A stretch of 64,000 nt of DNA from IMG/VR virus record IMGVR_UViG_3300008122_000001, positions 119,706 to 183,705 of that record. One strand, 5' to 3'. This document shows positions 48,099-49,433 of this stretch, one piece after another; position 1 is the stretch's first letter; each line of letters starts with the position of its first letter. Position numbers and translations under genes: made by a program. The stretch is from a virus. Its lineage: Duplodnaviria; Heunggongvirae; Uroviricota; Caudoviricetes. Below the pieces are notes generated by a model. It saw only the letters and a list, made by a program, of their open reading frames with translations. It did not search any database and was not told the DNA's origin.

Positions 48099-49433
48099 AT
48101 GTCACAATCTAATAGTGTTCCTTTAGATACACCATATAAGAAAATTTTACGTTTTCTTCTTTCTAATATTTTTAATGTTCGTAATACTAATTTAATTGTT
48201 GATTATATTAAAAATAATTTTGAACATTTAACAGAAGATGAAGTTCGACAACTAATTCACTTATCTTCTGTTCAATATAAGCTACGTACAGTTCCATTAG
48301 TGCTTGCTATTCTAGCTTTAAAATATAATAAATTAGAAAACCCTAAAGAAGTTTTTTTACAACTTTTAACACAACCTAATTTATTAACAACAGCTTTAAG
48401 TATCTATGAACAAGTTAATGGTAATGTAAAACCTTTAGCAGCTTCTTTAAAGAAAGCATTAGCTGAAAAAATTGTTACTTTTAATGATTATTCATTAATA
48501 AAAGGTAATGTTACTATTAACAATTTCAAACTATCTGATGTAATTAAGCTTACACATCCTAAAGCAATTTCTAAAGATCAAGAAATTCTTTTTAAACAAA
48601 TTTTAGATAATGATACTCCTAAATTAGATAATTGGGAAACAGTTGTTTCTAATGCTAAAAATAAACAAGAACGTCAAGTTCAATGGGAACGTTTATTACT
48701 AGATGGTAAAGTAACTAATTTAAATCTACTTCGTAATTTAAATAATTTAATTAATAACTCTGTTACTAAAGATCTTATTTTAGAAAAATTATCTAATATT
48801 AATTTAGATAAAGTTAATTTATTTCAATTATTAAATGCAACCTTAAATATTGAAAATAAAGCTGTCCTAGATGTTTTAAATAATCTAGTTAATACTCAAT
48901 CTAAAACTTCTTTAGATGGACGTACACTAATTATTTTAGATATTTCTGGTAGTATGTCTGCTACTATAGATCATAATAAAACTCGTCTTCAAGTTGCTAC
49001 TATGTTAGCTTTTTACTTAGGACGTATTTGTGAAAATTCTCTAGTAGTATTTACTGCAGGTAATGATGGAACATCTATTGGTAAACATAAAGTTTATACA
49101 AAAGATGTTAAAAATATTTCATATACAAACTTCTTTCAAGATACTAAGGCAACAAATTCTGAAATAGGTGCTGGTGGTATCTTTACTCGTCAATGTTTAG
49201 AATGGTGTGAATCAAACCTAACAGGGCGTTTTAATCGTACTGTAGTTATTTCTGATTCACATGATTGTGACCGTTATAATAAAGTATCTAGACCATTTAC
49301 TGCTTACAGTTTCTTACTTAATATTGCAAATACTAGTAATGAAATGGTTACAGATTCTAATTGGTCTTCTGAAATTAATGGTTGGTCTGATAACTTACCA
49401 TTATTTATTAAAGAATTTGAATCAAATTTTTAG
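48099..49433 (+). CDS. vWA-domain protein with ~280-aa N-terminal helical domain (possible TROVE/Ro60-like architecture)
   Basis: MIDAS RTLIILDISGSMSA at aa ~283 preceded by a long Leu-rich helical region; architecture (helical repeat + C-terminal vWA) recalls Ro60/Rsr; unverified. Confidence 0.45.
   Translation: MSQSNSVPLDTPYKKILRFLLSNIFNVRNTNLIVDYIKNNFEHLTEDEVRQLIHLSSVQYKLRTVPLVLAILALKYNKLENPKEVFLQLLTQPNLLTTALSIYEQVNGNVKPLAASLKKALAEKIVTFNDYSLIKGNVTINNFKLSDVIKLTHPKAISKDQEILFKQILDNDTPKLDNWETVVSNAKNKQERQVQWERLLLDGKVTNLNLLRNLNNLINNSVTKDLILEKLSNINLDKVNLFQLLNATLNIENKAVLDVLNNLVNTQSKTSLDGRTLIILDISGSMSATIDHNKTRLQVATMLAFYLGRICENSLVVFTAGNDGTSIGKHKVYTKDVKNISYTNFFQDTKATNSEIGAGGIFTRQCLEWCESNLTGRFNRTVVISDSHDCDRYNKVSRPFTAYSFLLNIANTSNEMVTDSNWSSEINGWSDNLPLFIKEFESNF

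Follow-up and report, generated by a model that had tools for sequence, protein, structure and literature searches.

A Ro60-family gene and candidate hairpin-type Y RNAs in an AT-rich, probably jumbo phage

Here we report that a 64,000-nucleotide stretch of DNA from a virus of the class Caudoviricetes (IMG/VR record IMGVR_UViG_3300008122_000001, positions 119,706 to 183,705; this whole stretch is referred to below as the window, and numbered from its first letter) very probably carries a phage Ro60 gene accompanied by two hairpin-type Y RNAs directly downstream of it. Ro60/Y RNA particles are conserved from bacteria to humans. To our knowledge, the function of viral Ro60 proteins is almost unexplored, with only one phage Ro60 studied biochemically. 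The evidence lies in the sequence and modeled fold of the protein, in the covariation of the RNA stems, and in the recurrence of the same RNA architecture beside distant phage genes of the TROVE family, the protein family that includes Ro60.

Family identity of the protein

A preliminary description of the window had proposed that the open reading frame (ORF) at 48099-49433 encodes a large helical N-terminal domain followed by a vWA domain with a DISGSM motif, and that the product might be a Ro60/TROVE-like protein. The ORF indeed runs from ATG to TAG at exactly these coordinates on the + strand, and encodes 444 amino acids (aa). When the single sequence was compared with Pfam, a check that the preliminary description had suggested, TROVE scored 23.9 bits (E 2.9e-5) against a gathering cutoff of 23, which is a marginal pass. 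PHROG 850, annotated as “RNA-binding protein,” matched at E 8e-12, and a search of NCBIfam returned no family. The best solved relative found with the single sequence was a “TROVE domain-containing protein” (9KOP/9L5Y, E 8.6e-9, residues 105-437), which is phiRo60 of Thermus phage phiLo (PMC12135203).

A large protein search yielded a close clade of 10 proteins with 43-90% identity and more than 100 further homologs at 26-36% identity, all of which carry PF05731. The homologs carrying this domain reach E 1e-62, and some sources label the 26-36% identical ones “60 kDa SS-A/Ro ribonucleoprotein.” We then built a profile from an alignment of 38 homologs (A2), which matched phiRo60 over its full length at E 1.3e-48, human Ro60 at E 1.9e-9, Xenopus Ro60 at E 6.7e-9 and, weakly, the Deinococcus Ro60 homolog Rsr at E 2e-3.

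The AlphaFold (AF2) model computed on A2 (predicted local distance difference test score 89.8, predicted template modeling [TM] score 0.85) is built entirely of helices over residues 12-266 and adopts the alpha/beta vWA fold from residue 272. We therefore describe the protein as a helical (HEAT-like) TROVE domain, residues 12-266 (48132-48896, + strand, as are all features of the gene), which aligns along the Ro60 ring in phiRo60 and Ro60, and a vWA domain, residues 272-444 (48912-49430). In a Foldseek comparison of the model with the PDB, the top 13 matches were all Ro60, Rsr or phiRo60, each full length with 480-540 aligned columns. TM scores were 0.70 for phiRo60, 0.68 for D. radiodurans Rsr and 0.54-0.64 for Xenopus and human Ro60; below these 13, the matches were isolated vWA domains and nothing else. 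The preliminary description stood or fell with a TROVE or ring likeness of the N-terminal domain, and both of its proposed comparisons, with Pfam TROVE and with the Ro60 ring, found that likeness.

Two motifs are well conserved in A2. The DISGSM motif, residues 281-286 (48939-48956), belongs to a MIDAS (metal ion-dependent adhesion site), defined as DxSxS...T...D (PMC11277228), which is complete here: D281, S283, G284, S285, M286 and D386 are invariant and T319 is nearly so. The most conserved stretch of the N-terminal domain is D147-V-I-K-L-T-H153-P (48537-48560), in which D147, V148 and H153 are nearly invariant. When the profile is aligned to 1yvp and 9nen, this motif falls on DLLRLSH187 of Xenopus and human Ro60, with H153 on H187, and the substitution H187S in Ro60 abolishes Y RNA binding (PMC11277228). 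Altogether, sequence and model indicate that the product of 48099-49433 is almost certainly a member of the Ro60 family. The model further suggests, with high probability, a ring of helical repeats closed by the C-terminal vWA domain, belonging to the phage branch typified by phiRo60.

Two Y-RNA-like hairpins downstream of the gene

The TROVE gene is followed by a 351-nt gap free of ORFs (49434-49784) that folds far better than shuffled controls (z = -6.6). The preliminary description had listed it as one of several structured elements that could supply a Y-RNA-like partner, and for this element the proposal stood. Two hairpins in the gap, on the strand of the gene and starting 21 and 148 nt past its stop codon, share one architecture. 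Hairpin 1 (49454-49523, 70 nt) has an outer stem (49454-49462/49515-49523), a bulged U (49463), a GG:CC step (49464-49465/49513-49514), an internal loop with UGUA (49466-49469) opposite ACCUUUU (49506-49512), an inner stem (49470-49478/49497-49505) and an 18-nt apical loop beginning UACUU. Hairpin 2 (49581-49662, 82 nt) likewise has an outer stem (49581-49591/49652-49662), a bulged U (49592), an AG:CU step (49593-49594/49650-49651), UGUA (49595-49598) opposite GCUUAAUU (49642-49649), an inner stem (49599-49607/49633-49641) and a 25-nt loop that also begins UACUU.

The boxes of the two hairpins read GGUGUAG and AGUGUAG, and the YUAY landmark of bacterial Y RNAs is present as UUAC inside an invariant AGUUACUU. 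The preliminary description had expected Y RNAs with tRNA-like modules. What we found are plain hairpins: neither apical loop holds T-arm sequence, there is no tRNA-like domain (T arm, acceptor-like stem and D arm), and the gap has no match to Rfam tRNA or Y-RNA models. Because they have no tRNA-like domain, we file them with the hairpin type of Y RNA (YrlB, Yrn2 and Yrl1/2) and not with YrlA.

Three further hairpins are found in or at the edge of the gap, all on the + strand. The first (49420-49443), read from the sequence, pairs AATCAAA with TTTGATT and holds the TROVE stop codon in its loop; relatives have a hairpin of different sequence at this position, and it is possibly a processing or termination signal. 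The gap fold further contains a perfect 15-bp hairpin between the two Y-like RNAs (49529-49576), which is absent from the close relative L006 and is not conserved in the gap alignment, and a long hairpin of about 24 bp just before the next ORF (49684-49775), which closes the gap, is also present in L006, and is a possible terminator or processing site.

This setting raises the question of whether the Ro60 homolog is real and the two hairpins are ordinary cis-acting elements (terminators, RNase III/E processing sites or 3' stabilizers) and not RNAs bound by this protein. Other hairpins surround them, they immediately follow the stop codon on the strand that encodes the protein, and the arrays in relatives end in terminator-like hairpins. 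No separate promoter is recognizable, promoter-like sites being no more frequent than in shuffled sequence. On the other hand, we found no terminator-like site with a GC-rich stem and U run, and terminators and processing sites do not have invariant unpaired internal-loop strands and an invariant loop start amid stems that vary freely. As shown below, this combination is what the related loci display.

Covariation in the close clade

In all close relatives the TROVE gene is immediately followed by 210-500 nt in which no gene lies. Alignment of these gaps revealed 2-3 tandem units of about 70 nt per locus with the invariant core GUG...AGUUACUU...ACU. The exact core occurs twice in the 64-kb window, both times inside 49434-49784, and in the eleven related loci that we fetched (9-13 kb each) the full motif was found solely in the post-TROVE gap, on the + strand.

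We collected 20 non-redundant units from seven related phage loci, all directly after the TROVE gene, and parsed each without an alignment. One architecture was common to 20/20 units. The outer stem measures 5-11 bp and is followed by a bulged U and a step of two base pairs, R-G:C-Y, which without exception is GG:CC (9 units) or AG:CU (11 units). The internal loop then presents UGUA in its 5' strand and roughly 7 nt (GCUUWUU) in its 3' strand; the inner stem has 7-9 bp and always ends AGU/ACU, and the apical loop, 18-30 nt long, starts UACUU. Since the MAFFT alignments (A3 and A4) slipped in the 3' half, where the length of the internal loop varies, we took 8 units that share the same geometry (A5) as the seed of a covariance model (R1) and re-aligned the remaining units with Infernal. 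When the window was searched with filters off, R1 found 49455-49522 (78.7 bits) and 49584-49659 (69.8 bits, from hairpin 2, which is outside the seed), with the next best match at 19 bits. R1 recovered 12/12 of the non-seed units, at 27-71 bits, and its matches in the seven relatives were confined to the post-TROVE gap.

In the resulting alignment of 20 sequences, 97.9% of the cells are paired, compared to 75% after shuffling and about 50% when the strands are slid. Changes on both sides occur in 14/19 pairs, and the 89 compensatory cells, where 27 are expected, were reached by 0/500 shuffles. The RNA structure is thus shown by covariation. The result also bears on a different explanation, in which the repeats act as DNA (as iterons, an origin, or a packaging or regulator-binding site) and sit beside TROVE through conserved synteny only. 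That these are tandem repeats in an AT-rich intergenic region fits such a role, and within the close clade synteny alone could account for their position. However, in the wider alignment described below the stems vary by compensatory changes and contain G-U pairs, which the opposite strand could not form. Under R1, moreover, hairpin 1 scores only about 15 bits on its reverse strand against 79 on the strand of the gene. The position argument can be addressed outside the close clade.

The RNA class across distant phage TROVE loci

We searched 80 distant IMG/VR loci, whose TROVE proteins are 24-35% identical to the window protein, with R1 at a threshold of E <= 0.01. The R1 seed derives from the AT-rich close clade only. 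We found 101 matches in 64/80 loci. All of these (101/101) lie on the strand of the TROVE gene, 0 fall inside it, and 97/101 are within 1 kb of it, with 56 upstream and 45 downstream. The best of them are GC-rich hairpins with identical architecture and a textbook box, as in locus L047: UUGGUCGG-U-GG-CGAA-GGUCACGGU-UACUU...AAC-ACCGUGUCC-GCUUGUU-CC-CCGACCAA. In 98 aligned matches, 94.3% of the cells are paired, compared to 61% after shuffling and 42-55% when slid. Compensatory changes appear in 19/19 pairs, and G-U pairs are common, which fits an RNA read from the strand of the gene.

These results weigh on both of the explanations raised above. An association that recurs in 64/80 unrelated loci with different neighbor genes, always on the gene's strand, is hard to attribute to synteny, and we consider a role of the repeats as DNA extremely unlikely. 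An element found upstream of the TROVE gene in 56/101 cases is not a 3'-end signal, and the published Ro box CGAA occurs in 9/86 distant copies; that the hairpins are merely cis-acting elements is thus, in our view, very unlikely. We return to the reading of the hairpins as Y RNAs.

The 4-nt box of the 86 distant copies is UGAA in 25, UGUA in 16, CGUA in 11 and CGAA in 9, with rarer forms in the rest. The loop starts with UACUU in 85/98 matches. Short apical loops like those of the window are present in 72/86 copies, room for a tRNA-like module in 14/86, and a T-loop sequence in 8/98 matches. Given that the distant copies vary at the same structural position, the window hairpins can be said to carry a variant of a broader YGWA box. 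A search of Rfam gave no match even for the canonical-box hairpins of locus L059.

Bacterial Y RNAs are known by their position near rsr, a long terminal stem, the sequence GNCGAA(N)G near the 5' end, and a conserved YUAY at the start of the tRNA-like domain; YrlB and Yrn2, which lack this domain, have also been described and are of the hairpin type (PMC4201824). These criteria also served to identify the Yrl1 and Yrl2 RNAs of phiRo60. Both bind the protein, with a loss of affinity of only 3-4-fold when one position of CGAA is substituted (PMC12135203). The window hairpins lie close to the Ro60 gene, well within the roughly 2 kb used as a criterion, and have the stem-bulge-stem layout, established by covariation in 20 and in 98 sequences. 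Their GGUGUAG-N7-UUAC aligns with the published GNCGAA(N)G and YUAY, and is therefore a variant of both landmarks in the same structure. Judged from these sequence comparisons, 49454-49523 and 49581-49662 are very likely to be Y-RNA partners of the Ro60 protein.

The data allow a hairpin Y-RNA class to be defined by three features: the internal loop is 4x7 and contains a YGWA box, the 3' strand ends UUCY, and the loop begins UACUU. This class flanks most of the phage TROVE genes sampled here and is unmatched by any Rfam family. We did not find the generalized YGWA box, the predominance of short hairpins, or the copies in phage crAss001 (see below) described in the sources that we consulted.

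Several observations weigh against this assignment. Literal GNCGAA is absent from the gap, as is the Y-RNA pattern GNCGAA(N0-1)G. At both gathering and permissive thresholds Rfam gave no Y-RNA match in the window, with none at E <= 10 in 46-62 kb. At four RNA-contact residues of phiRo60 (R137, R163, R169 and K193) the window protein has no basic residue in the alignment; K141 and R173 are kept as K118 and K150, so that conservation of the contact residues is partial overall and not decisive. Two alignments (A7 and A8) were made to the model, which favors the model's structure; the alignment-free parse agrees with it, but covers the 20 close units only. Lastly, a scan of 29 window ORFs found no PNPase or RNA-repair gene, and the effector named below is therefore a guess.

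Proposed mechanism

We infer the following working model, by analogy only, from the Ro60 systems already studied. The RNAs would be transcribed with or just after the Ro60 gene and then processed, possibly at the nearby hairpins 49420-49443, 49529-49576 and 49684-49775. Ro60 proteins are characterized by Y RNA binding on the outside of the ring and by uptake of misfolded RNA ends into its central cavity. Here, H153 would belong to the surface with which the outer face of the ring contacts the stem and the internal loop. The bound RNA may then gate the central cavity, or tether the ring to an effector, which would most likely be a host 3'-5' exoribonuclease such as PNPase. In this way the infecting phage could divert or weaken the RNA decay or RNA surveillance of its host. 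There is a precedent in phiRo60, which recruits host PNPase and, together with Yrl RNAs, attenuates PNPase activity in vitro (PMC12135203).

As the main alternative, the hairpins could be Y RNAs of a system that repairs or quality-controls the phage's own structured RNAs (for example tRNAs or the 52.3-54.4 kb region) and does not hijack PNPase. The TROVE proteins of jumbo phages have been grouped with RNA-repair genes (PMC7824862), an RNA ligase is encoded about 5.5 kb downstream of the TROVE gene in the related locus L005, and Salmonella rsr is reported to sit in the rtcBA RNA-repair operon. The window itself contains tRNA genes, and noncoding DNA that is strongly conserved extends over 2.1 kb not far from the Ro60 gene. 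However, the window ORFs scanned include no ligase, kinase or RtcB gene, and the sole biochemistry of a phage Ro60 points to PNPase, which leads us to regard a repair system as quite unlikely. A further variant is that the Ro60 system of this clade gave up tRNA mimicry, that its only Y RNAs are the 70-82-nt UGUA hairpins, and that its clients are the phage's own RNAs from 52.3-54.4 kb. If true, the system would serve large noncoding RNAs of the phage as a chaperone or RNA quality-control module and would not be a PNPase-capture device; we think this unlikely as well.

Other structured elements in the window

The remaining elements that the preliminary description had put forward as possible Y-RNA-like partners (46935-47052, 52.3-54.4 kb, 57861-58009 and 60649-60795) were rejected as Y RNAs, having no Ro box and R1 scores of <20 bits. 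Some have features of their own. A sub-threshold tRNA-like sequence (27 bits) is found at 57938-58006. The 147-nt element at 60649-60795 combines a 7-bp acceptor-like stem (GGAAAAC/GUUUUCC) and a T arm (CUAGG-UUCGACU-CCUAG) with an insert of about 100 nt; it has no Rfam tRNA match and overlaps a 59-aa ORF with a TTG start that is probably spurious. A tRNA with a CUA anticodon, that is, an amber suppressor (56.8 bits; “Pyl” according to ARAGORN), lies at 56697-56766. There is no sign of genome-wide TAG recoding in the window, as TAG still ends 8/87 long + strand ORFs.

The largest of these elements, 52263-54376, is a 2.1-kb region 3 kb downstream of the Ro60 gene without an ORF of at least 40 aa on either strand. 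We considered stop-codon recoding as the cause and rejected it, since reading TAG or TGA as sense still gives no ORF of at least 40 aa. The region has 75-96% nucleotide identity in relatives whose TROVE proteins share only 43-58%. It contains T-arm-like hairpins at about 53258-53280 and, as GGGUUCGAAUCCC, at 54192-54204, the latter in a 24-bp stem (fold z = -4.8). Rfam gave no match in 52263-54376. In two relatives ARAGORN reports a “tRNA-???” with irregular anticodon loops, which in L005 falls inside its gap without ORFs. The probable products of the region are conserved structured RNAs.

Source phage and gene neighborhood

The window is very AT-rich (G+C about 25%), and every ORF of at least 200 aa is on its + strand. 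Several of its ORFs match PHROG families. Contigs of close homologs, 248.9 and 249.5 kb in length, have the same gene order: dUTPase, a DPBB_1 protein, an ORF of about 100 aa, often a Bax-inhibitor-like membrane protein, and then the TROVE gene. From the length and gene order of these contigs and the PHROG matches, the source is most likely a jumbo phage of about 249 kb. A megablast search of the locus against INPHARED phages gave zero matches, and the phage therefore has no close isolated relative there.

In the window, the Bax-inhibitor-1-like membrane protein (PF12811, E 2.7e-25) is encoded at 47386-48081, 17 nt upstream of the Ro60 gene. A gene of this kind also precedes the Ro60 gene in L002 and L006. 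Elsewhere it is missing or replaced (in L011 by a Na+/H+ exchanger), so that its pairing with the Ro60 gene is not fixed. Between the DPBB_1 gene and the ORF that follows it lies a 72-nt block (46821-46892) whose identity is 96-98% in L005, L010 and L011, falls to about 90% in L006 and L008, and is 87% in L001 and L002. This block is conserved far better than the flanking proteins, folds weakly (z = -0.8), and could be a regulatory site or a small RNA.

Farther from the Ro60 gene, an adenylosuccinate-synthetase homolog is encoded at 12001-13221 (Pfam PF00709, E 7e-38; PHROG 1211). The phage members of this family include PurZ, the enzyme behind 2-aminoadenine genomes. The preliminary description had also proposed a second, unrelated vWA protein at 11053-11979; its vWA nature is unconfirmed, because Pfam gave no family at E <= 0.001 and the only match was PHROG 2971, whose function is unknown. 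The window further encodes a NUDIX hydrolase (59301-59732) and an ADP-ribosylglycohydrolase (61756-62601), and relatives have an NAPRTase upstream (L001/L002, positions 1-1600). Together, these three suggest an NAD/ADP-ribose metabolism set in this group of phages.

Comparison with known Ro60 systems

Ro60 genes of phages, including jumbo phages, and adjoining Y RNAs are already on record (PMC4201824, PMC7824862, PMC12135203). The locus described here is a divergent addition to these systems, and its closest counterpart is phiRo60 with Yrl1 and Yrl2 (PMC12135203). phiRo60 is likewise a phage protein with a Ro60 ring and vWA domain, and is the best match that we found in both sequence and fold. 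Its RNAs are likewise hairpins of the stem-internal loop-stem type beside the gene, with more than one per locus and no tRNA-like module described. The two systems differ in that the proteins share only about 20% sequence identity, the phiLo RNAs are upstream of the gene whereas those of the window are downstream, and the phiLo Yrl box is CGAA whereas the window box is UGUA. Moreover, phiRo60 has an interaction with host PNPase, which for the window protein would be a prediction by analogy.

In bacteria, Rsr is accompanied by YrlA and YrlB in Salmonella and Mycobacterium smegmatis and by Yrn1 and Yrn2 in Deinococcus radiodurans, likewise within 2 kb (PMC4201824). These Y RNAs share with the window RNAs a box on the 5' strand followed by YUAY and a long stem formed by the ends, and the second Y RNAs, YrlB and Yrn2, are hairpins. 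Each of the three experimentally characterized species has at least one Y RNA with a tRNA-like domain, whereas neither window RNA has one, and the bacterial GNCGAA(N)G is GGUGUAG or AGUGUAG in the window. The window protein is also about 90 residues shorter than Rsr, and the sequence match between them is weak (E 0.002). Metazoan Ro60 has the same fold (TM 0.54-0.64), with the equivalent of H187 and the MIDAS kept, and its RNA likewise forms a helix that is bulged and carries a conserved motif in the 5' strand. In contrast to the window RNAs, that motif is GGUCCGA, and metazoan Y RNAs are Pol III transcripts bound by La; the proteins are about 15% identical.

The nearest annotated phage proteins are the TROVE proteins of crAss-like phages, such as Gp96 of Bacteroides phage crAss001, which is 30.7% identical to the window protein over 71% of the query. 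Just downstream of Gp96 are two R1 hairpins (L092 3565-3650 and 3659-3738) with the same UAG-UGUA box as in the window. They are followed in crAss001 by a 144-nt tRNA-shaped RNA (L092 3743-3886), of which we found no equivalent in the window. The crAss001 record (NC_049977) annotates neither the hairpins nor the tRNA-shaped RNA, and a search of the literature, incomplete in its coverage, that combined crAss phages with TROVE, Ro60 or Y RNA gave no relevant paper among the results listed.

In crAss-like and other phage contigs of about 100 kb, the TROVE gene is directly followed by a tRNA-shaped RNA 124-144 nt long (L016 4330-4455, L026 4432-4573, L014 4319-4455, L022 4432-4574, L024 4351-4494, L015 4391-4521, L013 4603-4726, L017 3338-3472 and L020 4288-4416). 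These RNAs combine a D arm and a T arm with an acceptor stem of 7 bp that co-varies, and a long insert takes the place of the anticodon arm. The insert holds permuted Ro-box elements (ACUCU...UGUUCY-hairpin-URGUG-YGWA...AGAGU-UACUUC), and the whole looks like a circular permutation of the YrlA layout.

Seen against these systems, the window locus adds a divergent Ro60/Y RNA example from an AT-rich, probably jumbo phage. Because the hairpin class is also present in the cultured gut phage crAss001, its biology can be tested in a tractable host-phage pair.

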